In this document: positions 7,678 to 28,148 of the stretch, one piece after another
How positions within the stretch are numbered: the first letter of the stretch is position 1
How the letters are laid out: every line of letters starts with the position of its first letter
Source: an uncultured Bacilli bacterium
GTDB lineage: Bacteria > Bacillota_I > Bacilli_A > RF39 > UBA660
Direction: 5' to 3'
Assembly: GCA_944332635.1 (NCBI GenBank)
Contig: CALVKI010000007.1
Location: forward strand, 1-58,135
Length of the DNA: 58,135 nt
Translations under genes and position numbers: made by a program
The notes under the pieces: model-generated
The model's database searches: none
What the model was told of the DNA's origin: nothing
What the model saw: the letters and a program-made list of their open reading frames with translations, nothing else

Positions 7678-7688
7678 GAGAAATAGAT

Positions 7689-9506: not shown

Positions 9507-9521
9507 GTGGGAGATGGTAGT

Positions 9522-10328
9522 ATGAGAAAAAGGACTAGGCTACTGATTTTGAAAAAAAAGAAGGTATTTCTAATTGTTGGAATTCTATCTTTTTTATGTT
9601 TAGTATTTGCTATTATATTCTTATTATTTTATAATTATTATCCTATCGAGTCTAGAATAGGAAGAATAGAAGAGTATGCAAAAAATGATAAAGAAGATTA
9701 TACTACGGTCGGGTGGCTTAGAGTTCAAGGTACAAATATAGATTATCCTATAATTTATGCTCCATCTTATGATTTTAGTGGAATGACATATGATTTCTTA
9801 TGGAATGAAGTAAAGAGTGATAATTTGTTAAATCAAATAACTGTGAGTGGTCATAATATCTTAAATCTTTCTTCTAATCCTTTAGTTGCTAATGAAAATC
9901 ATAAACGATTTGAACAATTAATGAGTTTTATTTATTTAGATTTTATTAAAGATAATAAATATATACAATATACTGCAAATGGGAATGATTATTTATATAA
10001 GATATTTTCTGTAGCTTTTTCTAAAAAGTCAAATATAAAAAAGTTTACAAGAGAAGATTTATCAAGAGAAGAGATGAAAGAGTATTTAAATCAGTCTCTT
10101 AATGATAGTATTTTTGAATTTGATGTGGATGTTGATGAAAATGATAAAATACTTTCTTTAGTAACTTGTACGCGTATGTTTGGTCATTATAATGATATTG
10201 AATTTAAGATTGATGCTAGATTAGTTAGAAAAGGTGAATTAAAATTAAATTATGGAGTTAACAAGACTGAAAAATATCATGAGATAGAGAAAATCATGGA
10301 AGGTGGAGAAAATGATGAAAAAGTATAG
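9522..10328 (+). CDS. srtB: Class B sortase
   Basis: N-terminal TM; VGWLRVQGTNIDYPI, GHN, LSLVTC catalytic Cys. Confidence 0.85.
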   Translation: MRKRTRLLILKKKKVFLIVGILSFLCLVFAIIFLLFYNYYPIESRIGRIEEYAKNDKEDYTTVGWLRVQGTNIDYPIIYAPSYDFSGMTYDFLWNEVKSDNLLNQITVSGHNILNLSSNPLVANENHKRFEQLMSFIYLDFIKDNKYIQYTANGNDYLYKIFSVAFSKKSNIKKFTREDLSREEMKEYLNQSLNDSIFEFDVDVDENDKILSLVTCTRMFGHYNDIEFKIDARLVRKGELKLNYGVNKTEKYHEIEKIMEGGENDEKV

Positions 10329-13116: not shown

Positions 13117-13122
13117 TCATTT

Positions 13123-13587
13123 ATGAATAAAGCAATGTTAACGGTTGGAATTATTATTTTGAGTTTAGCAACGTTGTTAATGATTAATATTATTTCTAAT
13201 TATTCATCAGGTAGTGAGTTGGATTACTACCTGGTGAAAGAAACATCAGAAGCTGCTATGGTGGATGCTATAGATGTAGCATATTATCGTCAGAATGGAT
13301 TACTTCGTATTGATAAAGAAAAATTTGTTGAAAGTTTTGTTAGAAGATTTGCTGATTCTGTAGATACAACTAGAAATTATCAACTTTCTTTCTATGATTT
13401 AAATGAAGTACCACCTAAGGTAAGTGTGAAAGTCGATTCTTCTACCGTTTTAAGTTTTAAAGGTTCTGATTTGGAAATGTCAACAAAGTTAGATGCAATT
13501 TTAGAGAATACTTATGAGTCTGATCCGTTAGTTACTAAGGAAATAAATGACCCTAAGAGTGACTTTGGTAAGCCAGTAGAAGAGTAA
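13123..13587 (+). CDS. DUF5411-like / TadE-like minor pilin candidate
   Basis: N-terminal hydrophobic helix; YYLVKETSEAAMVDA…KEKFVESFVRRFA; position immediately before cpaB. Confidence 0.55.
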   Translation: MNKAMLTVGIIILSLATLLMINIISNYSSGSELDYYLVKETSEAAMVDAIDVAYYRQNGLLRIDKEKFVESFVRRFADSVDTTRNYQLSFYDLNEVPPKVSVKVDSSTVLSFKGSDLEMSTKLDAILENTYESDPLVTKEINDPKSDFGKPVEE

Positions 13588-13606
13588 GAAGGAAGGAGAG
13601 GATAAA

Positions 13607-14425
13607 ATGGGAAACCTTGGTATTGGAATAAAAAAATTTTTGTCCAATAAAAATACTGTCACGGTTGTTGGCGTAGTTGTTGCAGTATTAGTGTTATATA
13701 TTGCTTATAATATGCGTGTTCAAGCTGCTGTTAATCCAATTAGTGTTCCATATGCAATTGAACAAATTGAACCAGGAACACAAATTACAGAAGATATGGT
13801 GGGAATAATGGAGATTCCACCTTCTATGCTTGAAGGTGATGTGATTAGAAATCAAGCTGATGTTATTGATAAATATTCTAATGCTGATACATTAATACCA
13901 CAAGGAAGTTTGTTTTATACTAGACAAGTAGTCGAAAAGGAACAACTACCTGCTAATATTATTTTGGATTATCCAAAGGGTTATGTTTTATATAATATGC
14001 CTGTTAATATAGAATCTACATATGGTAATTCTATTTATCCAGGTAATTATATTGATATTTATTTAAAAATCACAAGAAAAAGTACAGGAACTGAAACTGC
14101 TACGACTAATTCTGATAGTGAATTGATGCAATATGGTAAATTTATTCAGAATGTTAAAGTGTTAGCAGTTAAAGATTCTTCTGGTCAACCTGTTTTTTCT
14201 AATTTAGATGAACAAAGAACACCAGCAATGTTAGTTTTTGCTTTACCTGAGCAATATTATATTTTACTTAAAAAGGCTAGTTATTTGACATTATATGATT
14301 CTGAATTAGTTCCAGTTCCAACTAATGAAAGCTTGCAGGATAAACCAGATGATTTAGAAATGAGTAGTGAAAGTCTTCGGGATTGGATTGAAACAGTTAC
14401 TTATTGGGATGAAAGTATGGGGTAG
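13607..14425 (+). CDS. cpaB: Flp pilus assembly protein CpaB/RcpC (SAF domain)
   Basis: TM, then VPYAIEQIEPGTQITEDMV (SAF), IYPGNYIDIY, QNVKVLAV. Confidence 0.8.
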   Translation: MGNLGIGIKKFLSNKNTVTVVGVVVAVLVLYIAYNMRVQAAVNPISVPYAIEQIEPGTQITEDMVGIMEIPPSMLEGDVIRNQADVIDKYSNADTLIPQGSLFYTRQVVEKEQLPANIILDYPKGYVLYNMPVNIESTYGNSIYPGNYIDIYLKITRKSTGTETATTNSDSELMQYGKFIQNVKVLAVKDSSGQPVFSNLDEQRTPAMLVFALPEQYYILLKKASYLTLYDSELVPVPTNESLQDKPDDLEMSSESLRDWIETVTYWDESMG

Positions 14426-14454
14426 ATATTAAAGAATAAAAAGGAGTTGGTCAT

Positions 14455-15855
14455 ATGAACGAGAATATTTTTGATAAACTAGATTTTGGACCCTTGCGTC
14501 CATTGTTAGATAATGATGATATTACTGATATTTCTTTTGATAATAATGGTCAGATTTGGGTGCGTTCTTTAACGCAAGGGTCACTTAGGGTTGAGGTTCA
14601 GGGATTGACTCCTGAATTTATAGAAAAATTGGCATTTCAATGTTCTAATGTTATGGGTACTACCTTTAATAATGCTAAGCCGTTTTTAGATGCTGAATCT
14701 GCTGAGTTGCGTTTGAATTTTGTTCATCCTTCTATTGCGACGAATGGTATAGCAATGGTTATCCGTAAGACTCCTGCTAAAATTCGATTAGAAAAAGATA
14801 AGTTGCTTAAAGATGATTATTTTACACAAGATATCCATGATATTTTGATTAAATGTGTTGAGGGTCATTGTAATATTATTGTGTGTGGAGAGACTGGTTC
14901 TGGTAAAACAGAATTCGTTAAATATTTAGCTAGTCATACACGTACTAATGAAAAAATTATTACTATTGAAGATACTTTAGAACTTCATTTAGATAAGATT
15001 TTTCCTCAACGTGATATTGTTGCTATGAAAACTAATAATGTTGCTAGTTATACTGATGTATTGGTTACTTGTATGCGTCAGAATCCTAAGTGGATTTTGC
15101 TTTCAGAAGTTCGTAGTGCTGAGGCAGTTTCAGCTGTTCGTAATTCTATTTCTTCTGGACATAATATTTTATCTACTATACATGCTGATAAAGCTTCTGC
15201 TATTCCGTATCGTTTATATAGTTTGATGGAAACGGATTTGGATGTTAATCAATTTTTAAATACAATTTATCGGTATATTCAAATTGGAGTTCATATTAAA
15301 GCATATTATAGTAAAGAACTTGGAAAATTTCATCGTGAAGTTGATGAGGTTTGTGAGTTTTATGTTGATGAAAATAATCAACCACAGACTAGGATTATTT
15401 ATCAAAAATTATTTGGGCAAGATCCAGTTATGCGTAAGCCAAGTCCTCATTTAATTGAATATTTAGAAAATCAAAATATTGATATTAATGCAATTACTGA
15501 GCATTTGAGTGATGACTTACCTTTTCATGATGATGTAGAAAGAGAAGAATATATGGAAAGCCATAAAGAAAATGGTAATTTAGGTAATGTTACTACTGAA
15601 TCTACTATGTCAGAAGTAGTTCCTCAAGTAGCTAATATTACTCCAGTAGTACAACCTATCATTCAAACAATTTCTAATAATCAAGTTCCTTCATCTTTAA
15701 ATGTTACACCAATGGTACAAGTACCGGCTACACCTAGTATTGTATCTTCTAAAAATGTAAGTTCTGAAGTGGTTCCTAATGTACCTACTTCTGATAAAAA
15801 AAATGTTCAAATACCGGCGATTGTAGATTTTTCATCTTTAGGTAATTTAGAGTAG
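14455..15855 (+). CDS. cpaF: CpaF/TadA/VirB11-family secretion ATPase
   Basis: Walker A GETGSGKT, Asp box IEDTLEL, MRQNP..ILLSEVR, His box STIHA; low-complexity C-terminal tail. Confidence 0.92.
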   Translation: MNENIFDKLDFGPLRPLLDNDDITDISFDNNGQIWVRSLTQGSLRVEVQGLTPEFIEKLAFQCSNVMGTTFNNAKPFLDAESAELRLNFVHPSIATNGIAMVIRKTPAKIRLEKDKLLKDDYFTQDIHDILIKCVEGHCNIIVCGETGSGKTEFVKYLASHTRTNEKIITIEDTLELHLDKIFPQRDIVAMKTNNVASYTDVLVTCMRQNPKWILLSEVRSAEAVSAVRNSISSGHNILSTIHADKASAIPYRLYSLMETDLDVNQFLNTIYRYIQIGVHIKAYYSKELGKFHREVDEVCEFYVDENNQPQTRIIYQKLFGQDPVMRKPSPHLIEYLENQNIDINAITEHLSDDLPFHDDVEREEYMESHKENGNLGNVTTESTMSEVVPQVANITPVVQPIIQTISNNQVPSSLNVTPMVQVPATPSIVSSKNVSSEVVPNVPTSDKKNVQIPAIVDFSSLGNLE

Positions 15856-15871
15856 AAAAGGGGGCAAATTT

Positions 15872-16774
15872 ATGTATATAGAGGAATTAGTTTTTTTAAT
15901 TGTCTTGGTTGTTGTTATTGCTCTTTATCGTAATTATAAGGGTCAAAATGTAGGTAAATTTATTACGACTCAAATGCAAGGTCTTTATGATAGGTTTGCA
16001 CCTTATTCATTTAAAGTTGTGCGAGAAAAAACAAAAGAATTAGGACAAGAATATACACCAAGACAATATTTAATACAAGTGATTATAATGGCATCATTTA
16101 CAGGAGTAGTTAGTTATTTATATTTCTATAATTTATTTATTTCATTAGTTTATATGGTTATTGTTGTTGCGTTTATTCCTTATTTATCTTATTTAAGATG
16201 TAAAAGGGTTTATAGTGAATTTATTTTTGAGCAAATTCAAGTTTATACTTCTAATACAATTATGGAATTTGCAACAACACAATCATTTGTAAAAGCATTG
16301 GAAGGTGTTCGTAATTCTGGTATTTTAGAAGATCCAGTTAAAAGTGATGTTGATCATATGATTGAACTTGCTTATGAAAATGGTAGTATCGAAGAGTCTC
16401 TTACTTATATGAGTCAATTATATCCTTATTATATAGTAAAGAATATGCATCAATTATTTTTACAAATTACTAAAGAAGGTGCAAGAAATTCTATGGATTC
16501 TTTAGATAATATGCAACTCGATATAGATATGCTTGTAGAAAGTGTTTATCGTGATCGTATAGAACGTGCTTCTTTTCATAAGTCCTTTCTACAATTTGGT
16601 ATTATGCTTTATTTATTAGTAATGTTGACACAGTATCTTTTGGGGCGAGAAACTTATTTAATTATGTTAGAACGATGGTATGTTAAATTTCTACTTCATG
16701 CTGTTTTAATTATTAATACATACTTCTTGTTAAAAGGTGAAAAATATTACAATGAGAATGTAGGTGCTGAATAA
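15872..16774 (+). CDS. tadB: TadB-like pilus platform membrane protein
   Basis: TM–2TM–helical domain–2TM layout directly after CpaF. Confidence 0.7.
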   Translation: MYIEELVFLIVLVVVIALYRNYKGQNVGKFITTQMQGLYDRFAPYSFKVVREKTKELGQEYTPRQYLIQVIIMASFTGVVSYLYFYNLFISLVYMVIVVAFIPYLSYLRCKRVYSEFIFEQIQVYTSNTIMEFATTQSFVKALEGVRNSGILEDPVKSDVDHMIELAYENGSIEESLTYMSQLYPYYIVKNMHQLFLQITKEGARNSMDSLDNMQLDIDMLVESVYRDRIERASFHKSFLQFGIMLYLLVMLTQYLLGRETYLIMLERWYVKFLLHAVLIINTYFLLKGEKYYNENVGAE

Positions 16775-17559
16775 TGGTAGAAGTAGTTATTGTAGGTGCA
16801 ATTATTATATTTGTTTTAATATATAATAATACGATTGATAAGAATAAGTTTATTGCTGATAATGAAAAGTATTTTGATATTTTAAGAGAGGAAGATTATA
16901 ATTTTTTAGTGTATGCAAAATATGGTGAAGATGTTGATCCAAATATATTATTTAGAAAGAGGATATATTATGCTATTTTAGTTGCTGTGGTATTTTTATT
17001 TATTTTTTTAAATCAATTGTCTTTTCTTAATGTTGTATTTTGTATTGTTGTAGCAGCTTTGGTTTTTAAAATGCCATATACACAGCTTAAATCATTTTAT
17101 AAAGCTCATTTGCATGATATTGATGTTATGTTGCCGTATTATTTAAAGAGTTTAGAAATTTTAATTCAGCATTATACGGTTCCTGTTGCTTTAGGTAAAT
17201 CTATTGATGATGCTCCTGATATTTTTAAACCTGGACTTCGAAGACTGATTGAACGTATTAATTCGGGTGATTCAACGATTGATCCTTATATGGAGTTTGC
17301 AAATACGTATCCAGTAAGGGATTCTATGCGTATGATGCGTTTACTGTATCGTTTGGGTCTTGGTTCACAAGAGAGAAAACAGGAAAGATTGATGATGTTT
17401 TCTAGAACTGTTTCAAATTTACAAAATAAAGCACGGGAAACAAAGTATAAAGAACGTTTAAATCATATGGAAAATCAAACTATGGTTATGTTAGTAGTTA
17501 CTGGTATGGGAACTATGGTTGTGATTTTAATTTCTATGATGATGATGTTTAACATGTAA
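16774..17559 (+). CDS. tadC: TadC-like pilus platform membrane protein
   Basis: LPYYLKSLEILI…VPVALGKSI T2SSF-like segment; C-terminal TM; coupled to tadB. Confidence 0.75.
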   Translation: MVEVVIVGAIIIFVLIYNNTIDKNKFIADNEKYFDILREEDYNFLVYAKYGEDVDPNILFRKRIYYAILVAVVFLFIFLNQLSFLNVVFCIVVAALVFKMPYTQLKSFYKAHLHDIDVMLPYYLKSLEILIQHYTVPVALGKSIDDAPDIFKPGLRRLIERINSGDSTIDPYMEFANTYPVRDSMRMMRLLYRLGLGSQERKQERLMMFSRTVSNLQNKARETKYKERLNHMENQTMVMLVVTGMGTMVVILISMMMMFNM

Positions 17560-17574
17560 ACCATATAAATTTTA

Positions 17575-17603
17575 TTGTAAAAGTGCAATTATGTTGGTAT
17601 AAT
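17575..17603 (+). promoter_or_regulatory. Internal SigA-type promoter upstream of the Flp-like pilin
   Basis: TTGTAA-17-TATAAT with TGn. Confidence 0.7.
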
Positions 17604-17643
17604 ATATAGTGTATATAGAATAGGAAAGGATGTGTATGTTTTA

Positions 17644-17841
17644 ATGAAAGCAGCAACAGGAGAATTAAATTTGACAGTAATTACGCTTATTGCTATTGCA
17701 GCAGTAATTGGTTTTTTCTGGATTATGTGGCCTAATATTCAAGAATCTATTAATTCTCAATGGGATACTATTAATGATAGAGATAAGGCTAAAAATCAAG
17801 GTAGCTTTTCTTATATTATTTTAGAAGATTTGTATAAATAA
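17644..17841 (+). CDS. Flp-like major pilin candidate
   Basis: 65 aa; short leader MKAATG, then a hydrophobic helix and amphipathic tail; follows tadC and has its own promoter; lacks the canonical E+5/Y motif. Confidence 0.65.
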   Translation: MKAATGELNLTVITLIAIAAVIGFFWIMWPNIQESINSQWDTINDRDKAKNQGSFSYIILEDLYK

Positions 17842-17855
17842 GGGTGGTGTAGAAA

Positions 17856-18299
17856 ATGCGAGATGCTTTAGGTGGAGTTGTTAATTTAACAATGATAGTT
17901 GTATTCCTAGTCTTGGTATGTGGGTATTTAGCATTTAATGTTAATTATACTAAAGCATTTCGTGTTAAAAATTATATTATTACATCATTGGAGCAATATG
18001 AAGGTAATTGTAAGAGTGGTACTGCCTGTTCAGATAAAATACAGTCATATATTAAGCAAGTAGGTTATAGTGCACCTGATTTCAAATTGGATGATTATAC
18101 TTGTAATTATGGGTATTGTTATAAAGAGTTTAAGGTTTCTAACGAAGTGGATGGTTCTGTTTCTGAATCTAAGAATCAAGTTTATTATCGGGTCGTTACT
18201 CAAATTAATATAGATATACCAATTGTCAACAGGATTATGCCTGGTTTAAAAATATTTCAAATTTCTGGTAATACAAAGTTGATAACGCCGTTTAAATAG
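17856..18299 (+). CDS. TadE-like minor pilin candidate
   Basis: MRDALGG leader, hydrophobic helix, small Cys-paired domain and terminal beta strands. Confidence 0.6.
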   Translation: MRDALGGVVNLTMIVVFLVLVCGYLAFNVNYTKAFRVKNYIITSLEQYEGNCKSGTACSDKIQSYIKQVGYSAPDFKLDDYTCNYGYCYKEFKVSNEVDGSVSESKNQVYYRVVTQINIDIPIVNRIMPGLKIFQISGNTKLITPFK

Positions 18300-18313
18300 G
18301 TGAGGTGACTTTT

Positions 18314-19330
18314 ATGAATGTTATTGTTAGTAATGAACAACGTAATGTTTTATCAGGATTAGATATTGATATAATTAAAAGTATTACTGGTGAATATGAT
18401 GCAAATGAAATAGTCGAAATGTTTAAAAATTTTTTCTATAATAAAATGATTTTAGATGTTACTGCTGTAAAAGATTATCATAGTGTTAAAAGTTTTCAAA
18501 CTATTGCTATGGGGTTGGATGTAGAAAAAATCGTTTTCTTTTTACCTGAAGGAAGTGATGTTTGTACTTCTAACTTTTTGTCTAAATTAGTTTCTATGGG
18601 AATTTATAATTTTACGACTAATGTAGAGGGTGTAAAATATTTATTGGAGCATCCTAATACATATAAACAAGTTGCCCATATTCAACAGTTGAACGATGTT
18701 TCTAATAATACTAGTATAGCTACTGTAAATCAAATTAATGATTCAAGGATTACTAATAGAGTACAAGGATCTAAAATTATAGGAGTTAGAAACGTTACAG
18801 AGCATGCAGGAGCTACAACGTTTATTTATATTCTGAAAAAGGAATTGAAGTCTTTTTTTGGGGATACTGTTATTGCTTTAGAGCTTAATAAGCATGATTT
18901 TCAGTTTTTTGGAGATCGGAATATGATATCCATTAGTTCTGATCAGTTACAAAGTTCTTTAGCTCGTTATGCTGGAGCTTCGGTACTTTTAGTTGATTTA
19001 AATGATTATCCGGATGATTCTAGTTGTGAGGAGGTTCTATATTTGTTGGAACCATCAACTATTAAGCTTAATAAATTGATGAAAAAAAATAGAAATGTTT
19101 TTTCAAAGCTTCAGAATAAAAAGATTATTTTAAATAAGAGTTTACTTTCAAACAGGGATGTTATGGATTTTGAATATGAGGCGAAAGTTAGAGTCTTTTA
19201 TAATATGCCTCCTTTGGATGAAAGAAAGAAAAATCAGATTTTTGATGATTTTTTATCTAGATTAGGTTTAATATCTAAAAAGGAAGATAAAAAGGATTCG
19301 GGAAAAATTTTTGGCTTATTTAGAAGGTAA
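18314..19330 (+). CDS. CpaE/TadZ-like degenerate MinD/ParA-type pilus localisation protein
   Basis: Receiver-like N-terminus; KIIGV..V..HAGATTF degenerate Walker A; C-terminal GKIFGLFRR amphipathic helix. Confidence 0.6.
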   Translation: MNVIVSNEQRNVLSGLDIDIIKSITGEYDANEIVEMFKNFFYNKMILDVTAVKDYHSVKSFQTIAMGLDVEKIVFFLPEGSDVCTSNFLSKLVSMGIYNFTTNVEGVKYLLEHPNTYKQVAHIQQLNDVSNNTSIATVNQINDSRITNRVQGSKIIGVRNVTEHAGATTFIYILKKELKSFFGDTVIALELNKHDFQFFGDRNMISISSDQLQSSLARYAGASVLLVDLNDYPDDSSCEEVLYLLEPSTIKLNKLMKKNRNVFSKLQNKKIILNKSLLSNRDVMDFEYEAKVRVFYNMPPLDERKKNQIFDDFLSRLGLISKKEDKKDSGKIFGLFRR

Positions 19331-19332
19331 TG

Positions 19333-19361
19333 TTGACAAATACTTTATTTTAAGATAATAT
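19333..19361 (+). promoter_or_regulatory. Internal SigA-type promoter upstream of the VirB2-like pilin
   Basis: TTGACA-17-TAATAT. Confidence 0.7.
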
Positions 19362-19385
19362 AACTTTATTGAAGGAGTGTTGTTT

Positions 19386-19742
19386 ATGTTAGATTTATTT
19401 CAAGTAGGTGTTGTTGGGAATGCTAGTGATAATTGTGGAGGGTTAGCTCCAATTGTTAGAATTATAAAAAAAGGAGTATTTCCTATTGTACAAATTGGTA
19501 TTCCAATTCTATTGATTGTATTTGGTACAATTGATTTAGGAAAAGCTGTTATTTCTAGTGATGAGAAAGAAGTAAAACAAGCACAAAGTCGTTTAATAAA
19601 AAGATGTATTTATGCTGTTGCAATATTCTTTATTACCACTTTAGTAACTTTGCTTATGTCTTTAGTTACTACTGGTACTGAGGGTGGAGATAAAGAAGCA
19701 AATACTACTGGATGGGCTACTTGCTGGAATAGTATTAAATAA
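19386..19742 (+). CDS. VirB2/TrbC-like T4SS pilin
   Basis: Two hydrophobic helices joined by a charged loop (DLGKAVISSDEKEVKQAQSRLIKR); strong GAAGGAG RBS. Confidence 0.7.
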   Translation: MLDLFQVGVVGNASDNCGGLAPIVRIIKKGVFPIVQIGIPILLIVFGTIDLGKAVISSDEKEVKQAQSRLIKRCIYAVAIFFITTLVTLLMSLVTTGTEGGDKEANTTGWATCWNSIK

Positions 19743-19757
19743 AAATGATACAAAATT

Positions 19758-19787
19758 AAATAGTAAAGTAATTGCTATTTTTTTTTT
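19758..19787 (+). terminator. Weak terminator after the VirB2-like pilin
   Basis: AAATAGTAA/TTGCTATTT stem (one GU pair) plus T run. Confidence 0.5.
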
Positions 19788-19800
19788 ATTTTGATATACT
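19772..19800 (+). promoter_or_regulatory. SigA-type promoter for the downstream T4SS genes
   Basis: TTGCTA-17-TATACT with TGn. Confidence 0.6.
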
Positions 19801-19833
19801 TAATCTGTATATTTCTTATATGGAGTGGTGAGA

Positions 19834-21036
19834 ATGAAAAAGTTCAAATTTTTCATATTTATTTTTATCTTTAGTATCTTATATTTTTTTCCATATAATA
19901 CAAAAGCTTTGAGTAATAAAGTGGTTAGTTGTGATTATCAATTTATAAATAGTAGTGGGAAGAAAGTGCAATTAGAATATGAAATTTATTCTGATGGAAC
20001 TGTGAAGACACCTTTTAAAGATGGTACCTTATATGATAAAAATGGTATTTCTTGGTATCATAGTGATCGTTTTGAATCTATTTATTATAGTGCTGCAAAA
20101 ATTAATAGTTCTACTGTTACTTGTCCTTCTATTTATATTCAAGAAAATGATTTAAATGTTACGGTTTATCCATATCCGCTTAATAGTAAAACTTGTAGTG
20201 GACATTGCTATAATATTACTTCTGGTGCTTTAAAATTATCTAGTTGGGCTAAAGATATTGGCGTTAAGAGTAAAAGGGTGTTGTCTACTTGTACAGGTTC
20301 TAGTATGGGTTTTTATAATCGTAAAAGCTACATTCTTCCATATTTTAGACTTTATTCTGATGGGACAAAAGAATGGAGTGTAGATGGTGAAACTTATGTT
20401 TCAATTACTCAGGCTATTACCGGTACAGTTGGAGGAGAAGATTTTTCCATTACTGTTAATGATTCTTTAATTAATTCTATTTTTTCTTCTTCACAGGTAA
20501 TTTGTCCTGAACAGATTTATCGTTGTGTTACAAAAGAGCAGAAAGGTTATTCTTACGAGTTATCCGCTGGTGTTAGCTATTGTACTAAAGATGATTTAGG
20601 AAGTAGTGATGGTCAGGGTTTTGGTTCTGGCTATTTTAGTGGGGCTTTTGGTGACCCTAATGGTGATAATAGCGATAGCGATTCCGATGATTCTGATGTT
20701 TTAACAGATTTAAAGGAAGATTTAAATTCTTATAATCAGAATCCAGATTGTAACTCTCTTTTAGGAAGTACAGCTGATGAAGATTCTGTTGCTTGGTTAT
20801 TGCAGCAACTTTTAAATTATATTAAAATTTTAGGCCCAATTTTGGTTGTTATTTTAAGTAGTTTGGATTTTGCAAAAGCGATTATTGCGAGTGATGATGA
20901 GAATATGAAAAAAGTAGAACGAAAATTAATGATTCGTTTGGTTTTAGCAATTGCACTATTTTTAATACCAGTATTGGTGAGTGTATTACTTAATATTTTT
21001 GGTATTACAACGGATCAGATTTGTGGATTGAAATAA
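19834..21036 (+). CDS. Secreted Cys-rich repeat protein with C-terminal VirB2-like pilin domain
   Basis: Signal peptide (…NTKA); two YSDGT…CP.IY repeats; acidic linker; C-terminus PILVVILSSLDFAKAIIASDDENMKK…RL aligns with the preceding pilin. Confidence 0.75.
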   Translation: MKKFKFFIFIFIFSILYFFPYNTKALSNKVVSCDYQFINSSGKKVQLEYEIYSDGTVKTPFKDGTLYDKNGISWYHSDRFESIYYSAAKINSSTVTCPSIYIQENDLNVTVYPYPLNSKTCSGHCYNITSGALKLSSWAKDIGVKSKRVLSTCTGSSMGFYNRKSYILPYFRLYSDGTKEWSVDGETYVSITQAITGTVGGEDFSITVNDSLINSIFSSSQVICPEQIYRCVTKEQKGYSYELSAGVSYCTKDDLGSSDGQGFGSGYFSGAFGDPNGDNSDSDSDDSDVLTDLKEDLNSYNQNPDCNSLLGSTADEDSVAWLLQQLLNYIKILGPILVVILSSLDFAKAIIASDDENMKKVERKLMIRLVLAIALFLIPVLVSVLLNIFGITTDQICGLK

Positions 21037-21051
21037 TGGTAGGTGATATTA

Positions 21052-23133
21052 ATGACAGATACTGGTACAGCTGATGTTTTTGGTAACTTAGGTAGAAGTT
21101 TAGGACAAATTTTTAATGTTTGTGTTTATTCTCTTTTGGGATTGGTATATCAAATATTTTTTAATGTTGCTAGTGCACAATTATTTGAGAATGAAACTAT
21201 TAAAAACTTTTATGGACGCGTTCAATTAATTATTGGTGTGTTTATGGTTTTTAAGCTTGCTGTTTCAATTTTACAAGGAATTATGGATCCAGATAAATTT
21301 ATGAATCCTAAGGAGGGGTTTGGAAATTTTATTACTAGAGTCGTTATTTCTCTTTCTTTACTTACTGTATTAGTTCCTATTAATATTCCAAATGTGGAAC
21401 AGGCTAATTCTTTTGAAAAATATCTTAATAATAATGGACTTTTATTTGGAACTTTGTATTCTTTACAAGATAGAATTTTATCTAACAATACTTTGGGTAG
21501 ATTAATACTTGGTACGACGGATAATGCAATAGATAACACTAATACTGATACTTCGGGAATGACAGAGGCGGAAATTCAAACTGAAAAGTTACAGAGTTCA
21601 TCTAGAATTTTTACCTCGACAATTTTAAAGGGTTTTTTAAGAATTAATTTACTTCCTGAGGGAGTTCGTAAATCTGATGATGAAAATGATCAGGAGAATT
21701 GGATGTGTGGTAAGCATATTGGAAACGATGAAAAAGATATTATCAATGCTTATAGATTATTGGATGTTTCTCCAGAAATATTGCTTGATGATTCTATTGT
21801 AAAAGCAAAATGTGATTTAAATGAATCTTTTGGTGGTTGGATTGGAAACGTCTTTAATATAGGAGGAGATGCTAAATACTTATTTGCATTTAATTGGTGG
21901 CCAATTTCTATGGTGGTTGGTATATTATTTTTGGTTATTTTAATTGGTTTTACTGTTGATATTGCAATAAGATCTATTAAATTAGCTATTTTGAGACTTA
22001 TTGCACCAATTCCAGTCATTAGTTATATTGAGCCTAAGTCTTCAAAAGATGGTGGGATGTTTTCTTCTTGGCTAAAGGCATTAACATCTACTTATTTAGA
22101 TTTATTTTTGAGACTAGCTATTGTATATTTTGTTATTTTCTTAATTCAAGATATGATTGTTAATGGAATTGTTATTAATGAGGCAACTGGCTTAGTTGGT
22201 ATGTTTTCAATTATCTTTATTTGGATTGGTTTATTCTTTTTTGCAAAGATGGCACCTAAGTTTATTAAGGATGCACTTGGATTGAAGGGTACTATGTCTA
22301 ACGTTGGCCTTAGTGGTATTCTTGGTGGTGCAGGTGCCTTGTTTGGTGGAGGTGGTCTTGCTGGTGCTGGTGCTGGAATGTTATCTAGTATGAATAATGC
22401 GGCAGAGGCGGCTGCTCAAGGAAAGCAAGCACCTCCTGCTTGGCAAAGTGGTGCTAATTTAGCCGCACAAATTAAGACAGGTGATCCTAAAGCAAAAGGT
22501 GGACTTATGAATTCTATTAATGATAGATTAATGCGAGAGGCTGGAATTAATCGTGCAAGAAAACTTTATGGTGTTACTGCTAATGGTTTAGCAAAAGCTA
22601 AAGATAATATGTTTGGAGCACAAGGTGAAGCAGCAAGATTACAAGATTTTTACGATCGCTTAACCCAAGGAAATTTAACACCAGAAGAAATGAATAGAGT
22701 TGCTATGGAAGGTGGAATAACTACTGATGCCCATGGAAATCAAGTTGTCTCTGATGCTTATCGTAAAAGGGCATACAAAAAACTGTCAGATGCTCAAACT
22801 TATGCTGCTAAAGCTAAAACTCATTATGAAGATGCTAAGAAATTTGCAGATTCACATCGTATTACTCCATCTTTTGAAGAAGAACATCGTTGGAGTATAA
22901 AAGAGCGTATGGGATTAGGTAAACAACCAAGATATCGTGCAGATTATCGTGCTGAAAGTGGACGGACTAATGCTCATCAAACAATGGGTGATCGTATATT
23001 TGGTTCTCCAGAGAAGTGGGATGTTGATGGTAGTTCTAGAAATGATAATAGATGGTCATCTGGTAAGTTTGGTGCTGATTTAAATGATGTTCATGATAAT
23101 AGTGATACGACAAATAATACGCCTAGTGCTTGA
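21052..23133 (+). CDS. virB6: VirB6/TrbL-like T4SS channel protein with long C-terminal extension
   Basis: Polytopic; IRSIKLAILRLIAPIPVISY…WLKALTSTYL motif; Gly/Ala-rich region followed by a hydrophilic tail. Confidence 0.75.
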   Translation: MTDTGTADVFGNLGRSLGQIFNVCVYSLLGLVYQIFFNVASAQLFENETIKNFYGRVQLIIGVFMVFKLAVSILQGIMDPDKFMNPKEGFGNFITRVVISLSLLTVLVPINIPNVEQANSFEKYLNNNGLLFGTLYSLQDRILSNNTLGRLILGTTDNAIDNTNTDTSGMTEAEIQTEKLQSSSRIFTSTILKGFLRINLLPEGVRKSDDENDQENWMCGKHIGNDEKDIINAYRLLDVSPEILLDDSIVKAKCDLNESFGGWIGNVFNIGGDAKYLFAFNWWPISMVVGILFLVILIGFTVDIAIRSIKLAILRLIAPIPVISYIEPKSSKDGGMFSSWLKALTSTYLDLFLRLAIVYFVIFLIQDMIVNGIVINEATGLVGMFSIIFIWIGLFFFAKMAPKFIKDALGLKGTMSNVGLSGILGGAGALFGGGGLAGAGAGMLSSMNNAAEAAAQGKQAPPAWQSGANLAAQIKTGDPKAKGGLMNSINDRLMREAGINRARKLYGVTANGLAKAKDNMFGAQGEAARLQDFYDRLTQGNLTPEEMNRVAMEGGITTDAHGNQVVSDAYRKRAYKKLSDAQTYAAKAKTHYEDAKKFADSHRITPSFEEEHRWSIKERMGLGKQPRYRADYRAESGRTNAHQTMGDRIFGSPEKWDVDGSSRNDNRWSSGKFGADLNDVHDNSDTTNNTPSA

Positions 23134-23165: not shown

Positions 23166-23483
23166 GTGAATTATTTAATACCTGCTAATACGAAGAAGGG
23201 TCAATTAATCTTAGGATTATTTAGACCTTTCGATTTAATTTTATTTTTATCTGGGGTGATGGTTACTATTATTTTGTTGGCGTTTTTGCCACTTACTAAT
23301 ACTTGGCTTACTATTTTAATTATTAGTCCTGCTGTTATTTGTGGATTTCTTGTAATGCCAGTACCTTATTATCATAATATTTTAAATATTATTGTAGAAA
23401 TGTATCAGTTTTTTTCAGAACCTCAAGCATATCATTGGAAAGGTTGGTGTTTTATGGATGAAAAAGAAAATAGTAGGAAGTAA
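23166..23483 (+). CDS. VirB3/PrgI-like small 2-TM protein
   Basis: YLIPAN..KGQLILGLFRPFD plus two TMs; upstream of VirB4. Confidence 0.65.
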   Translation: MNYLIPANTKKGQLILGLFRPFDLILFLSGVMVTIILLAFLPLTNTWLTILIISPAVICGFLVMPVPYYHNILNIIVEMYQFFSEPQAYHWKGWCFMDEKENSRK

Positions 23484-24009
23484 TTTTACGGAGAATTGGT
23501 TACCTGTTAAAGCTATTCAAAATGGGATGATTATTACATATGATAATTTGAAAGTTTCTGGGGTTAAGATTTCTCCACGCAATATTTTTATTTTAGATCC
23601 ACAAGCTCAGGATAATGTGTTGATTAGTTTAAAAAATTTTTATAATATGATAGATTTTGAGTTTTGGTTAGTAGTTGCTGATAGGCCTGTAGATATTTCT
23701 GTTTATATGTCTCAATTACAACTTTTATATAACGAAACTCAGTCTCCGGCTATACGTAAGTTGATTATGCAAGATATTGAAAAGGGTAATTCTTTTATTA
23801 ATAACAATATTGTTGATACTGAATATTATTTCTTATTTAAAGAAAAAGATTCTGATGTTGTGCAAAAACGAGTTCGTATGTTAATTCAAGGTCTTGCTAG
23901 TTGTGGTCTTAATGCTTCACAAACAACGAATGATGATTTAAGAGTTATTTTAGATAATTTTTTAAATGGTGGAAAAACTACTGAATTTGGGACGGTGATG
24001 CCTATATGA
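23458..24009 (+). CDS. VirB4-associated conjugation protein (TrsD/TraC-N-like)
   Basis: LPVKAIQNGMI…VKISPRNIFIL motif typical of the small gene between prgI and virB4; overlaps both neighbours. Confidence 0.55.
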   Translation: MKKKIVGSNFTENWLPVKAIQNGMIITYDNLKVSGVKISPRNIFILDPQAQDNVLISLKNFYNMIDFEFWLVVADRPVDISVYMSQLQLLYNETQSPAIRKLIMQDIEKGNSFINNNIVDTEYYFLFKEKDSDVVQKRVRMLIQGLASCGLNASQTTNDDLRVILDNFLNGGKTTEFGTVMPI

Positions 24010-25799
24010 GTACTAGTATAAGAAGCCAATTGGCTCCTAAGGGACTTAGTTTTCATCCTAGTGATTTCTTTATTAGTGATAAGTATGCAACTATTCTTAC
24101 AGTAGTATCTTATCCTAAATATATTACACCTGGATATTTATCATCTTTAACTAATATGCCAGGAATAAAGGTTGTTGTTAAACACATTCCTGTTCCTTTT
24201 CAAGTTATGTCTAAAATGTTAAATAGGCAAGTTGCGGAGTTGAAAGAAAGGTATCAACGTGAAAAAGATCAAACAATGCGTGAAAGATATCGTCAGGATG
24301 CTGAAAGCTTGGAATATTTTACATCTATGCTTGCAGGTAGTCAGGCACGTATTTTTGATTTTCAAATGCATATTATGATTACTGCTGATACAAAAGAATC
24401 GTTAGAGTTAAAGAAAGTAAATGTAAAAAATTATTTAGATGCAATGGAATTAAAGGGGATTTCTTTACGTTTTGAACAAGAGAAAGTTTTAAAAAGTATT
24501 TTACCTATTTTTCCTTCTCAAGATGTAGAACAGAGAATTGGTACACCGATACCTTCTGTAACTATTGCGGCTATGTATCCTTTTATTTTTGATAGTATTA
24601 AAGATCCTGGATTGGCTACTTTATTGGGTGTTGATTTCTCTGGTGGAGTTATTTTATTTAATCAATTTTTATACAAAATTCGTAAAGAGAATAATCGTAA
24701 TAATGCTAATATGATTATTTTGGGTACTTCCGGGTCAGGAAAATCTACTGCAGCAAAGGTTATGCTTCGTACTCATATTCGTAATGGTTGTCAAATTGTT
24801 GCTATTGATCCAGAAGATGAATTACGGGAAATTACTCAAACTTATGGTGGTGACACTATTGATATTGGAAAAGGTGGAGAATTTGGCTTAATCAATCCTT
24901 TAGAAGTTATCATTGATGCTGATGAAGAAGAGATTAAACAAGGACTAGGTTATACGGTCTTGACTCGTACATTACAATTTTTAAAAGCGTTTTTAAAATA
25001 TTACGCTCCATCTATCGAAGATGATGTTTTGGGTATGTTTAGTGATGTTGTTCAAGATACTTATAAGAGGTTTGGTATTGATTTTAATACTGATTTTTCA
25101 CAATTTACTTCAAATGATTATCCAACATTTTCTGATGTTTATGCTACTATTAAAGGGCGTTTAATGTCTATGACAGAGCAAACACGAGAAAGAGATGTTA
25201 TGGAACGGTTGGAATTACGAATTCGCCCACTTACGAAAGAATTAAGATTTTATTTTGATGGTCATACAACCATTAGTCGAGATAGTGACTTTATGGTATT
25301 TAATATTAAAGAATTGATGAATACAGATTCTAATATTCGTGATGCATTATTCTTTAATGTTTTGAAGTATGCATGGGGTCTTTGTTTAGACTTTAATGTG
25401 GATACCGTTTTAATGGTTGATGAAGCACATGTATTGTTAGGTGCAAATAATGAGCTTGGTGCAGAGTTTTTGGCACAAGTTCAAAGACGTGCTAGAAAAT
25501 ATAATACGGGAACAATTATTATTACACAGCAACCTAGTGATTTTGTTGCCAGTGAGAAAGTTTTGATGCATGGTAAAGCGATTTTTGATAACGCTTCTTA
25601 CTATTTAGTTATGGGATTAAAGAAACAGGCGGTAGAAGATTTAAGTTTGTTAATTGATTTAAATGATAGTGAGAAAGAAAGTATTAAGAGGTATTCTCAA
25701 GGAGAGGCATTATTTGTTTGTGGTAATAGGCGTATGCGTATTAATATTGCTGTTACCAAAGAAGAATTAGATTCGTTTGGTTCTGGTGGAGGTTTTTAG
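24006..25799 (+). CDS. virB4: VirB4-family T4SS ATPase
   Basis: NANMIILGTSGSGKS, IDPEDE, INPLE, MVDEAH, RARKY, ITQQPSDF. Confidence 0.92.
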   Translation: MSTSIRSQLAPKGLSFHPSDFFISDKYATILTVVSYPKYITPGYLSSLTNMPGIKVVVKHIPVPFQVMSKMLNRQVAELKERYQREKDQTMRERYRQDAESLEYFTSMLAGSQARIFDFQMHIMITADTKESLELKKVNVKNYLDAMELKGISLRFEQEKVLKSILPIFPSQDVEQRIGTPIPSVTIAAMYPFIFDSIKDPGLATLLGVDFSGGVILFNQFLYKIRKENNRNNANMIILGTSGSGKSTAAKVMLRTHIRNGCQIVAIDPEDELREITQTYGGDTIDIGKGGEFGLINPLEVIIDADEEEIKQGLGYTVLTRTLQFLKAFLKYYAPSIEDDVLGMFSDVVQDTYKRFGIDFNTDFSQFTSNDYPTFSDVYATIKGRLMSMTEQTRERDVMERLELRIRPLTKELRFYFDGHTTISRDSDFMVFNIKELMNTDSNIRDALFFNVLKYAWGLCLDFNVDTVLMVDEAHVLLGANNELGAEFLAQVQRRARKYNTGTIIITQQPSDFVASEKVLMHGKAIFDNASYYLVMGLKKQAVEDLSLLIDLNDSEKESIKRYSQGEALFVCGNRRMRINIAVTKEELDSFGSGGGF

Positions 25800-25823: not shown

Positions 25824-28148
25824 GTGCCGGCAATGAAAAATGATGATATACACGAAAATAATGTAGTACAAAGTGATTCTCAGGGGCAAGTAACTGGTGC
25901 TGAACAACCTCAAAGTTTGGGAGATTCTAGAGCTTCCAAAAAGGAACATGAAAAGCAATCTGCTCAAGAAGGAGTTCAAAAGGCTGGTAAAGCAACGGGG
26001 GCTGCTATTGGTGCTTATTTGGGTGGAAGTGCAGGTGCTAAAGTAGGAGCAAAAGTAGGGGATGCTATTGGTAAATCTAAAGTAGGTCAACAACTTGGAA
26101 AAAATTTAGCTAAAAATCCTATTACACGAAAAGCTTTGTCTAAGGTTAATGATAGTGGTGCAATTGATGCAGCCAATAAAGTAACTGATATAGCAACTTC
26201 TGATCCAAAAGGTGCTATGGGAACTAGTACTCCTGGTGCTTCTGCTTCTAGTGGAGAAAGTTCGAGTGGAGATAGTGTTTTAGATAAAAAAGCAAAATCT
26301 AAACCCAATTTTTTAGGTGATGATGAGAGTAATTCAAATGAAGAAAAGTCTACATCAATTGATGGTATGTTTTCTGGAAGTATGAAGAAAAAATTAGCAT
26401 TGAGTGCTATATTATTTGGTGGAGGATTTTTTATTATCATATTTTTCGTTGTTATTGCTCAAGGAAGTGGAATTGTTACTAGTTATGATGATGCATTTGG
26501 TGTTAGCGATGCTACTGGAGGAATGACAGGTGGTGTGGATTATGAAACAGCAGATCCAGAAGCTCGTGCTTTCTTTGATCGAGTTAGGGATGTCAAAAAT
26601 TCTTTTCAATCGCAAGGAAAGACTTTTGATGCGGTTTATATTTCTGCTATTTATAGTGTTTTAAATCAGCGTGGTGCTAAATTATCTTATAATGATATGA
26701 CTACACAAGTTATTACTGAATTTGCTAATGCTATGTTTTCTGGAAATAGTTTTAGCAAAGAAGTATTTAAACAAAATTTGATTAATGTTATTTTTCCTAA
26801 GTATTTACCTAATAAAAGTCAGCAAACATATGAAAATATGGCAGATGAGGTTTTTGATTATTATGACAATTATTTCAGTTTAATTGGTGCAACAGCTTCT
26901 AATTGTGCTAGTTTAGGTTCTTGCATTTATGAAATTAAAGGTTTTTATATTGAAGGTCGTGGAAATGTTGCTAAGTCTTTGTCTATTACTGATTTGAAGG
27001 TTCGTTTGATGCAATGTTCTGGTCAGTTTGGTGGCGGTACTTGGGGTGAACCACTTGAAGGAGAAGAGCTAGTTCCGTTTGAACAGTATGTGTTGGGTGT
27101 GGCTTATCAAGAAATTGGTCCTTCCGCTCCAGATGAAGCAATTAAAGCTCAAATGGTTGCTGCAAGGAGTTTTGCTTTGGCAAGACCTACAGCAATGGGA
27201 AATGCTCTTGGAAAAAAATTAGAACAAGAATCTAATGGTCAATGGATTTTACAAATGTCTGCTTGTGTTGCTGATCAAGTATATTGTAATCCTAATTTAG
27301 GATGTTCGGCTATGAATGATGGAGATCAGTATGGTACTGTACGTAGTGGAACTGGTTATGCAGTCAGATTAAAAGATCCATTGCCTTCTGATCATAAAAT
27401 GAGAACTCTTGCTAATGAAACTATGGGGGAAGTTTTAGTTAATGATCAGGGATATATTATTTCTACAGGATATCTTGCTACTGAACAAAATAAGTTTATG
27501 GATCTTGCTAATCAAGGTCTTAATTATAAGCAAATATTATTGCAAGTTTATAATTCGGGAAGTAGAAATTATGGGGCAACGGATATTGATAAAATGAGTT
27601 GTAATACTGGTTCTGGTAGTGGTTGTAATAGTACTGGAAGTACAGGTCCATATGCAGGATGGAAACAGGCAGATCCTGCATGGGCTAATATTACTATAGG
27701 TAATACAAGTTCTACTATTGGCGGAGTTGGTTGTCTAGTTACTTCTATTTCTATGTTAATTGCTAAAAGTGGAGTAGCAGTTAATGTTGATGGTGATTTT
27801 AATCCAGGTACTTTTGTTCAAAAATTAAATCAGGTTGGAGGATTCCAAGGAGCTAATTTTGTTTGGGGTTCTGTAAGTAATGTTGCACCAAATTTTCAGT
27901 TTGTAAGTAAAGCTTATGTTTCAGGACAATCTCAACAGCAAAAATTATCTACACTTCAAGGTTTACTTGATCAAGGTTATTACGTAGTTGCTGAAGTAAA
28001 AGGTAATACTGGTCAACACTGGGTAGCTATTGATGGTATTAATGGAAGTACAATATTGATGATGGATCCAGCTAGTCAATCTACTAGTATGTGGCAACAG
28101 TATGATTGGGTTAATACTAGTCAATATGCATATTTCAAAGTGGTATAG
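25824..28148 (+). CDS. T4SS-associated wall hydrolase (VirB1 position): TM + SpoIID/LytB domain + C39-like peptidase
   Basis: EQYVLGVAYQEIG…EAIKAQMVAARSFA…DQVY; WKQADPAW…GCLVTSISM…HWVAI…MDP. Confidence 0.8.
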   Translation: MPAMKNDDIHENNVVQSDSQGQVTGAEQPQSLGDSRASKKEHEKQSAQEGVQKAGKATGAAIGAYLGGSAGAKVGAKVGDAIGKSKVGQQLGKNLAKNPITRKALSKVNDSGAIDAANKVTDIATSDPKGAMGTSTPGASASSGESSSGDSVLDKKAKSKPNFLGDDESNSNEEKSTSIDGMFSGSMKKKLALSAILFGGGFFIIIFFVVIAQGSGIVTSYDDAFGVSDATGGMTGGVDYETADPEARAFFDRVRDVKNSFQSQGKTFDAVYISAIYSVLNQRGAKLSYNDMTTQVITEFANAMFSGNSFSKEVFKQNLINVIFPKYLPNKSQQTYENMADEVFDYYDNYFSLIGATASNCASLGSCIYEIKGFYIEGRGNVAKSLSITDLKVRLMQCSGQFGGGTWGEPLEGEELVPFEQYVLGVAYQEIGPSAPDEAIKAQMVAARSFALARPTAMGNALGKKLEQESNGQWILQMSACVADQVYCNPNLGCSAMNDGDQYGTVRSGTGYAVRLKDPLPSDHKMRTLANETMGEVLVNDQGYIISTGYLATEQNKFMDLANQGLNYKQILLQVYNSGSRNYGATDIDKMSCNTGSGSGCNSTGSTGPYAGWKQADPAWANITIGNTSSTIGGVGCLVTSISMLIAKSGVAVNVDGDFNPGTFVQKLNQVGGFQGANFVWGSVSNVAPNFQFVSKAYVSGQSQQQKLSTLQGLLDQGYYVVAEVKGNTGQHWVAIDGINGSTILMMDPASQSTSMWQQYDWVNTSQYAYFKVV

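Follow-up and report, generated by a model that had tools for sequence, protein, structure and literature searches.

A candidate second pilin-like protein with a cysteine-rich passenger domain in the chromosomal type IV secretion locus of an uncultured Bacilli bacterium

The classes of type IV secretion systems (T4SSs) found in Gram-positive bacteria are described, in the passages of a recent survey that deal with them, as having no virB2 homologues (Microb Genom 2025, PMC12102498), and the corresponding passages of a review state that VirB2 and VirB5 have not been found among Gram-positive T4SSs, with the Patescibacteria as one recently identified exception (FEMS Microbiol Rev 2025, PMC12857230). 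Essential arrays of divergent VirB2-like pilins of the PF18895 family, present in relaxase-less chromosomal T4SSs, are reported for the Patescibacteria in passages of the same two sources (PMC12102498, PMC12857230). The present analysis concerns a 58,135-nucleotide contig (CALVKI010000007.1, assembly GCA_944332635.1; hereafter the window) of an uncultured Bacilli bacterium, whose 1.45-Mb genome is available in 112 contigs and is 71% complete. The window encodes a small hairpin protein (pilin 1) and, next to it, a 400-residue protein (the fusion) in which an N-terminal cysteine-rich domain precedes a C-terminal module related to pilin 1. The fusion is interpreted here, with moderate confidence, as the product of the second of two adjacent pilin-like genes, that is, as a minor paralogue of a T4SS pilin-like subunit with a role in surface display.

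The system of the window is the same in kind as that of the Patescibacteria, although it occurs in the Bacillota and includes, in addition, a paralogue with a signal peptide and a passenger. Common to both are the PF18895 family (here by transitive relationship), a monoderm apparatus resembling the MPF-FATA type with VirB3, VirB4, VirB6 and VirD4, a chromosomal location, a cluster without a relaxase, small genomes and at least two divergent pilin paralogues adjoining each other. The differences lie in the host, here a gut lineage of the Bacillota (class Bacilli); in the signal peptide of one paralogue, which in a single clade also has a folded passenger of 240 residues; in the outward Cys pair that flanks the hairpin; and in the joining of the T4SS to a Tad cluster. 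The passages of the Patescibacteria T4SS literature that were covered make no mention of pilin-passenger fusions (PMC12102498, PMC12857230), and no description of such fusions in the Bacillota was found in titles, abstracts and passages of the literature.

The integrative and conjugative elements (ICEs) of Mycoplasma offer a second comparison. The VirB4 of the window matches NF045975 (the Mbov_0397 VirB4) along its whole length and, judging by family names and model lengths, these elements too seem to pair a small pilin-like protein with a longer one that bears the module. The bare presence of a pilin-like module in Mollicutes-related bacteria is already known through the NCBIfam names. The module of the fusion lies far below the curated cut-offs of the families concerned (12.5 bits against 40 for NF045849 and 17.4 bits against 90 for NF045848, a 322-position model). 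The ICE genes are mobile whereas the present cluster has a fixed chromosomal place throughout a family, and the passenger described here is N-terminal and unrelated.

With the VirB2/TrbC and VirB5 proteins of Gram-negative bacteria the window shares an outline, namely a hydrophobic hairpin subunit encoded by the side of VirB6, VirB3 and VirB4, together with a separate means by which a binding activity is presented at the surface. It differs in that a PF04956 match, a VirB5-like gene and outer-membrane parts are all absent, and its putative binding domain forms part of a pilin paralogue where those systems have a protein of its own. Head-to-tail cyclisation occurs in some VirB2/TrbC pilins, and the Cys pair of the present hairpin occupies the corresponding place. 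Modular type IV pilins, such as the bimodular pilins of Streptococcus sanguinis, follow the same principle of design, in that a functional module is joined through a linker to a pilin module and a minor subunit decorates the filament; their pilin fold and machinery are unrelated (type IV filament as against T4SS), and the graft is C-terminal there and N-terminal here.

Architecture of the fusion protein and its pilin-like module

The features of the two adjacent genes are as follows.

19386..19742, + strand: pilin 1, a leaderless two-helix hairpin of 118 amino acids (aa), with one Cys before helix 1 and one after helix 2
19758..19787, + strand: terminator-like AT-rich hairpin of 8-9 bp with 10 T behind it, immediately 3' of the pilin 1 stop codon
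19834..21036, + strand: open reading frame (ORF) of the fusion, 400 aa from the ATG at 19834 (the mechanical ORF begins at a GTG at 19825)
19834..19911, + strand: predicted signal peptide, residues 1-26, with a basic n-region, a hydrophobic core and an NTKA end before LS
19912..20619, + strand: Cys-rich, beta-rich passenger domain (N-domain), residues 27-262, with eight Cys
20620..20748, + strand: disordered Gly/Asp/Ser/Asn linker, residues 263-305, of low model confidence and the most variable region
20749..21036, + strand: C-terminal pilin-like module, residues 306-400, stop codon included, delimited by BLASTP to pilin 1, PF18895 and the model helices

Residues 330-394 of the fusion align without gaps to residues 38-102 of pilin 1 (BLASTP, 32% identity, 71% positives, E=1e-13). 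At the profile level the module common to both proteins extends from Cys306 to Cys397, as judged from an alignment of 26 modules (A2; L031 was omitted, its module being cut by the start rule), in which a Cys, a Pro, a DF-K-A motif, a basic loop and a second Cys are nearly invariant. The module of the fusion is laid out as Cys306, a helix at 319-352, a charged loop with six K/R residues in the sequence, a helix at 355-389 and Cys397. The full-length model has a predicted local distance difference test (pLDDT) score of 76, with values near 90 for the N-domain, about 72 for the hairpin and below 50 in the linker (residues 269-293 and 298-308). A GGAG is located 8-12 nt 5' of the start codon, and the N-terminus, MKKFKFFIFIFIFSILYFFPYNTKA followed by LS, is signal-peptide-like and modelled as a helix at residues 2-18.

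A word-indexed search retrieved 135 proteins at E<=1e-3; the 120 of them listed are mostly full-length homologues with 40-99% identity, and none of those listed is a named protein. From this set, 27 orthologues were picked for spread (alignment A1). Their mean pairwise identity is 0.39 and 0.46 in the two halves of the N-domain, 0.27 in the linker and 0.66 in the module. Conservation within the fusion is thus highest in the module, and the passenger diverges faster. A preliminary description of this DNA, made from its letters alone, had pointed out the signal peptide, the Gly/Asp/Ser linker, which is predicted to be disordered, and the alignment of the C-terminus with the small upstream pilin, for which it quoted two strings that are both present; these three points agree with the results given above. 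The two diverged repeats that it saw in the N-domain did not hold up. The BLASTP match between residues 28-140 and 141-262 covers 8 residues (E=0.087), a profile-profile comparison of the 27 sequences with hhalign gives a probability of 1.3%, and the recurrences are limited to the short motifs Y-x-hydrophobic-Y-S-D-G-T and C-P-x-x-I-Y. An extra N-terminal segment of ~100 residues that shows the same C-x-Y ... C-P-x-Y pattern once more was seen in some orthologues of ~500 aa (P0098, P0103, P0107 and L062:9605-11107), which suggests that small Cys-stapled units were added stepwise.

The fusion contains ten Cys residues, all at positions conserved in the 27-sequence alignment. C33, C97, C121, C125 and C397 are kept in 27/27 orthologues; C153 and C224 are jointly missing in all nine sequences that lack either one, and C231 and C250 likewise in 3/3. 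Joint loss of this kind is the pattern of disulfide partners, which argues that the N-domain folds outside the cell. Modelled alone from 20 sequences (A3; the window and 19 same-genus loci), the N-domain is beta-rich with a pLDDT of 92.5 and a predicted template modelling score of 0.88. Foldseek searches with this model against PDB and BFVD returned no neighbour at E<=1e-3, no PDB sequence match, usable ESM Atlas match or PHROG family was obtained, and the Pfam matches to residues 27-262 among the 27 orthologues at E<=0.1 were scattered and at chance level. The N-domain is, on the predicted structure, a confidently modelled fold without any structural neighbour; no homology to VirB5-like families was found by Pfam, PHROG or PDB sequence comparison, and the model is beta-rich.

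The family assignment of the module rests on intermediates. Against PF18895 (T4SS_pilin; gathering cut-off 26.6 bits) the fusion scores 15.7 bits (E=0.016, profile positions 3-71 of 71) and pilin 1 scores 19.4 bits (E=0.0011), both sub-threshold, as are the matches in 22 of the 27 orthologues (best E=7e-4). Several relatives pass, namely L033, L032 and L030 among the aligned modules (36.3, 29.0 and 26.6 bits) and P0329, P0365, P0253, P0252 and P0251 among the proteins retrieved with A2 (39.2, 33.3, 32.8, 31.5 and 29.8 bits), so that transitive profile homology to accepted members is present. Two long hydrophobic helices with a short charged loop (~70-100 residues in all) are present in the model, and T4SS core genes (VirB6-like, VirB3-like, VirB4 and VirD4) adjoin within 10 kb downstream. 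By this transitive profile evidence the module is part of a very large family that overlaps PF18895, and it belongs with the PF18895-type 'T4SS pilins'.

Comparison of the 26 modules with NCBIfam points in the same direction. Sub-threshold matches were obtained to NF045849 'Mbov_0395 pilin-like' in 16 modules (best E=5.9e-5), to NF045848 'MMCAP2_0566' in 12 (best E=7.2e-6, model positions 60-127), to NF045889 in ten and to NF045890 'pLS20_p028' in eight, and all the sub-threshold NCBIfam matches are to conjugation proteins. No solved pilin was retrieved with the module sequence, and a fold search with the whole model was dominated by the hairpin and matched generic helical hairpins only.

Related loci and the two-gene arrangement

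Related loci numbering 78 were collected from gut metagenome-assembled genomes labelled Bacilli, Tenericutes, Mycoplasmatota, Mollicutes or Erysipelotrichaceae, two Candidatus Faecimonas species among them, and gene order was read among the matches listed by tblastn with 26 window proteins. Two loci (L073, L077) represent further module genes at a different place in the genome, and L109 is a short contig with the module gene and VirB6 only. The gene order from the sortase to VirD4 is unchanged among the matches listed. The fusion is present in 20/20 species genomes of the same genus (55-79% identity), with the small pilin adjoining each time. In every related locus compared, the gene between pilin 1 and VirB6 bears the module, and pilin 1 is located upstream of it in 74 of the 78 loci. 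By a crude rule, 67 of the 78 proteins at this second position have a signal-peptide-like start, the checked misses being GTG starts. Apparent truncations at this position (ORFs of 243-296 aa in L047, L056, L057 and L059) were rejected as an artefact of choosing the first ATG, the frames being open from a GTG. The N-terminal extension, measured in 63 proteins with a signal-peptide-like start and an SVAW motif, is bimodal, with 44-104 aa in 44 proteins and 258-423 aa in 19. The bimodal extension and the constant placing of the module between pilin 1 and VirB6 argue that a second pilin-like protein (pilin 2) is general, and that the large passenger was elaborated in one clade. Passengers of other lineages are unrelated to that of the window protein.

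Pilin 1 has 1104 homologues. In the related loci 75 ORFs of 100-124 aa correspond to it, all of them lacking a true signal peptide, and its identity across loci is 50-92% as against 32-76% for the fusion. The terminator-like hairpin that follows it is likewise retained. Folding of 19735-19835 gives a minimum free energy of -16.6 kcal/mol (z = -2.17), a run of at least eight T follows pilin 1 in 72/74 related loci, and a hairpin was found in 58/74. An 8-pair consensus stem was obtained from 40 of 69 distinct sequences aligned; compensatory changes in it are few because the hairpin sequence itself is conserved, and the hairpin (TTGCTATTTTTTTTTT) was seen to be nearly invariant in sequence across genera. 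A scan of 17500-21300 for consensus terminators gave 0 sites, since the scan requires three G-C pairs and misses an AT-rich hairpin. Promoter-like sites show no excess (26 against 23.0 +/- 4.4 in shuffles).

The wider distribution of the module was examined in a class-wide sample of 150 genomes at >=85% completeness together with the genome of the window. The module was found in 17 genomes: the window's own, those of the 14 remaining genera of its family without exception, and two from other families. An orthologous split VirB4 (>=60% identity) is present in exactly these 17. No module was found at E<=1e-5 in nine genomes with distant VirB4 types (24-33% identity). As the genomes are related, this co-occurrence is to be read as concordance rather than as a statistical test. 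In one genome of another family (G037), three tandem module genes (C76:9903-11024, L026) were observed ~3 kb upstream of the orthologous VirB4, an arrangement resembling the pilin arrays described for the Patescibacteria.

Possible roles of the second pilin-like protein

If the fusion is a minor pilin-like subunit, its N-domain would be exported by the Sec pathway and the signal peptide cut after NTKA. The hairpin would insert with its two ends on the outer side and the basic loop, with its six K/R, on the cytoplasmic side. The outward Cys306-Cys397 pair and the paired passenger Cys would form disulfides. Pilin 1 would be produced in excess over pilin 2 through a leaky terminator, as the terminator-like hairpin after the pilin 1 gene suggests. 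The VirB6 platform would take up pilin 1 as the main and pilin 2 as the minor subunit, a division that the higher identity of pilin 1 across loci also favours, and the passenger, held on a tether of ~45 residues at the surface of a T4SS stalk or filament, may bind the surface of a partner cell or a host. When pilin 1 (alignment A4) and residues 300-400 of the fusion (A1) were modelled as a complex, the score was 0.00 without controls, a value that has no bearing either way.

Several observations weigh against this interpretation. Neither the fusion nor pilin 1 reaches the PF18895 cut-off. PF04956 (VirB2/TrbC) was absent from 13 window proteins and 26 relatives at E<=0.01, from the 27 orthologues at E<=0.1 and from 59 representatives of the wider family at E<=0.001. 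The VirB2-like C-terminus of the preliminary description is upheld as a link to PF18895 and the NCBIfam pilin-like families, by sub-threshold matches here and passing relatives, and not as membership of VirB2/TrbC. Thioredoxin_4/DsbA-like, VKOR and DsbB families were not found in the genome at its 71% completeness, which leaves the proposed disulfides without an identified catalyst; many Cys-rich exported proteins were nevertheless observed in the same genome (G000). The co-occurrence of module and VirB4 rests mostly on one family of related genomes, with few independent instances, and the evidence for all members of the module family is computational. An extracellular filament of pilin 1 and pilin 2 is purely hypothetical. 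Of the earlier proposal of a minor pilin displaying its domain on a T4SS filament, what stands is the T4SS operon and a predicted topology that places the passenger outside.

The most serious rival explanation, possible though on balance unlikely, is that the module is a generic membrane anchor, a hairpin by which this lineage typically tethers exported domains such as adhesins and wall enzymes to the cytoplasmic membrane, and that the fusion is an ordinary surface protein encoded in a T4SS operon, without co-assembly with pilin 1 or a filament. It draws its force from the reuse of the module. A profile search with A2 over 1.84 billion proteins returned 11,045 representatives at E<=1e-3, of which 7,933 reach E<=1e-10. 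In the best 150 of these, the module stands alone in 88, follows an N-terminal passenger in 30, precedes a C-terminal passenger in 27, is in tandem in four and has passengers on both sides in one; a passenger or second module thus occurs in 62 of the 150, so that fusion is not rare, and the module may stand at either end of the protein. Pfam scanning of 59 of the 150 found five that pass PF18895, the passengers being mostly without a family, with a few CHAP, NlpC/P60, GDSL and Flg_new domains. In the relatives, the module occurs alone (100-139 aa), C-terminally behind a signal peptide and passenger, or N-terminally before other domains, which include Amidase_3, NlpC/P60, GDSL/SGNH, YkuD plus Big_2, C39-like and Cys-rich ones.

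A search of the whole genome with the module also revealed a third copy in the genome of the window, a 283-aa protein on contig C42 (L003:1477-2325) with an N-terminal module and a C-terminal NlpC/P60 domain. It was observed beside housekeeping-like genes, a YceG/MltG-like ORF (by eye) and a methyltransferase-like ORF; in many genomes of the same genus its orthologues share a contig with the T4SS cluster, at a distance of ~20-25 kb. NlpC/P60, amidase, SGNH, L,D-transpeptidase and CHAP domains are anchored by an N-terminal copy of this module in proteins encoded outside T4SS clusters, which is more simply explained by a membrane anchor than by a pilin subunit, and the generic anchor that the preliminary description had set against its own reading is to this extent borne out. 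A wall-spanning tether that joins ectodomain and anchor would also be expected to be acidic and flexible, as this linker is. An anchor of general use does not readily account for the fixed position of the gene between pilin 1 and VirB6 in related loci, for the module being the best-conserved part of the protein, for its strict co-occurrence with one T4SS type (17/17 as against 0 other sampled genomes at E<=1e-5), or for the sub-threshold matches being all to conjugation 'pilin-like' families and to no other anchors. The placement of the fusion as a T4SS pilin paralogue is plausible on the sequence evidence, yet this evidence does not separate it from a membrane-anchor role.

An improbable alternative is a channel or stalk without a pilus, in which both pilin-like proteins form a short membrane- and wall-spanning conduit on VirB6 and the N-domain serves as a cap, a wall-binding element or a gating element. 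The conserved position adjoining VirB6 would suit such a conduit, as would the modelled helices of 34 residues, which exceed the need of a bilayer; passages of the review cited above indicate that most Gram-negative T4SSs need pilin subunits even where no pilus is made (PMC12857230). A folded cap is no general requirement, however, as the second pilin of most related genera has a variable extension of only 20-80 residues, and the fast divergence of the passenger would be unusual for an internal machine part.

Exclusion or kin recognition, in which a variable exposed domain marks carrier cells and blocks redundant mating or attack between kin, would agree with a variable, surface-exposed and clade-specific ectodomain on a conserved anchor in a T4SS operon and with the common location of exclusion genes in transfer operons, but is highly improbable given that Pfam, NCBIfam and PHROGs hold no known exclusion protein similar to it and that a chromosomal system universal in the family would exclude nearly every neighbour of the same lineage.

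On the preferred reading, as a minor paralogue of a T4SS pilin-like subunit, the fusion gives an instance of a Bacillota lineage in which pilin-like genes are fixed in a conserved T4SS operon, one of them built to display a folded domain, in a group of systems said to lack VirB2. If the subunits assemble, the locus would provide a second example of a monoderm T4SS fibre, independent of a culturable host, and would show how nature may decorate such a fibre; it could represent a possible donor lineage of, or a parallel to, the Patescibacteria system, and the variable passenger may serve as a handle on partner specificity in abundant and unstudied bacteria of the animal gut. A rather improbable extension is that this family of gut Bacilli with small genomes depends, like the Patescibacteria, on a fixed chromosomal T4SS and Tad apparatus for cell contact, the PF18895-like hairpin acting as a general 'mounting tag' that loads exchangeable cargo onto the T4SS fibre or stalk, from lineage-specific adhesins such as the present Cys-rich domain to NlpC/P60, amidase, CHAP, SGNH and L,D-transpeptidase enzymes, and the decorated pilus binding and cutting the wall of the partner.

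The surrounding gene cluster

The other genes of the cluster are listed below.

13607..17841, + strand: Tad-type genes (PF16976, PF00437), namely RcpC/CpaB-like, TadA ATPase, two TadB/C-like and one Flp-like of 69 aa, the TadB/C and Flp labels being given by position and size only
21043..23133, + strand: VirB6/TrbL-like polytopic membrane protein (PF19597 TrbL_4, E=0.0011, sub-threshold)
23166..25799, + strand: VirB3-like protein (105 aa) and VirB4 split into ORFs of 183 aa and 597 aa (NF045975)
25824..28148, + strand: candidate cell-wall hydrolase, SpoIID-like and C39-like (PF08486, E=8.4e-11; PF13529, E=1.5e-4)
28996..31287, + strand: VirD4-type coupling protein (PF02534, E=3.6e-55; NF045973, 307 bits against a cut-off of 250)

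The VirB6-like gene is kept directly 3' of the fusion gene in related loci, and a 260-aa protein is encoded between the hydrolase candidate and VirD4. NF045975 (Mbov_0397-type VirB4, 894 positions) is matched in register by the three ORFs of the VirB3-VirB4 stretch, at positions 2-96, 101-276 and 294-891; the largest ORF scores 352.5 bits, below a cut-off of 590 that refers to the undivided protein. Stop and start codons were observed to overlap between these ORFs. The split is kept in relatives, with a C-terminal ORF of ~600 aa in all 17 genomes that have an orthologue, and the stretch has the appearance of a gene naturally divided in three, not of a pseudogene. With VirB4 and VirD4 of the monoderm conjugation type, the cluster has the composition of a Gram-positive (MPF-FATA-like) T4SS.

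No relaxase family was detected among the 49 window ORFs scanned, and the genome (71% complete) gave no match to PF03432, PF02486 or PF08751. The relaxase in or beside the cluster that a conjugative element (ICE or plasmid) would have was thus not found, and the cluster is syntenic in 20/20 species of the genus. It is best explained as a Gram-positive-type T4SS that resides in the chromosome, is inherited vertically and is joined to a set of Tad pilus genes.

DUF5411, a sortase and large surface proteins are also encoded upstream of the fusion. Window positions 6121-19330 were seen to contain the sortase, an Ig-like surface protein, proteins of 518 aa and 937 aa without a family, DUF5411 and the Tad set, all syntenic with the T4SS; the gene of the 937-aa protein is one of those that diverge fastest within this block (24-76% identity). 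Between greA and this conserved block, on the - strand at 5429-5923, lies a short ORF with a partial, sub-threshold match to the rve integrase core. The window has a G+C content of 28% and a strongly positive GC skew. Two short RNA-library contigs fall on the region, one of 227 nt on pilin 1 and one of 162 nt identical to 20149-20309; they may represent DNA carry-over and were not used as evidence. Mob_Pre (MOBV) relaxases were observed on other contigs of the genome (C97:12755-13420, C37:819-1241 and C98:3933-4421, with fragments at C50:1467-1835 and C61:35-184), and these might belong to small mobilisable elements that use the chromosomal T4SS in trans.

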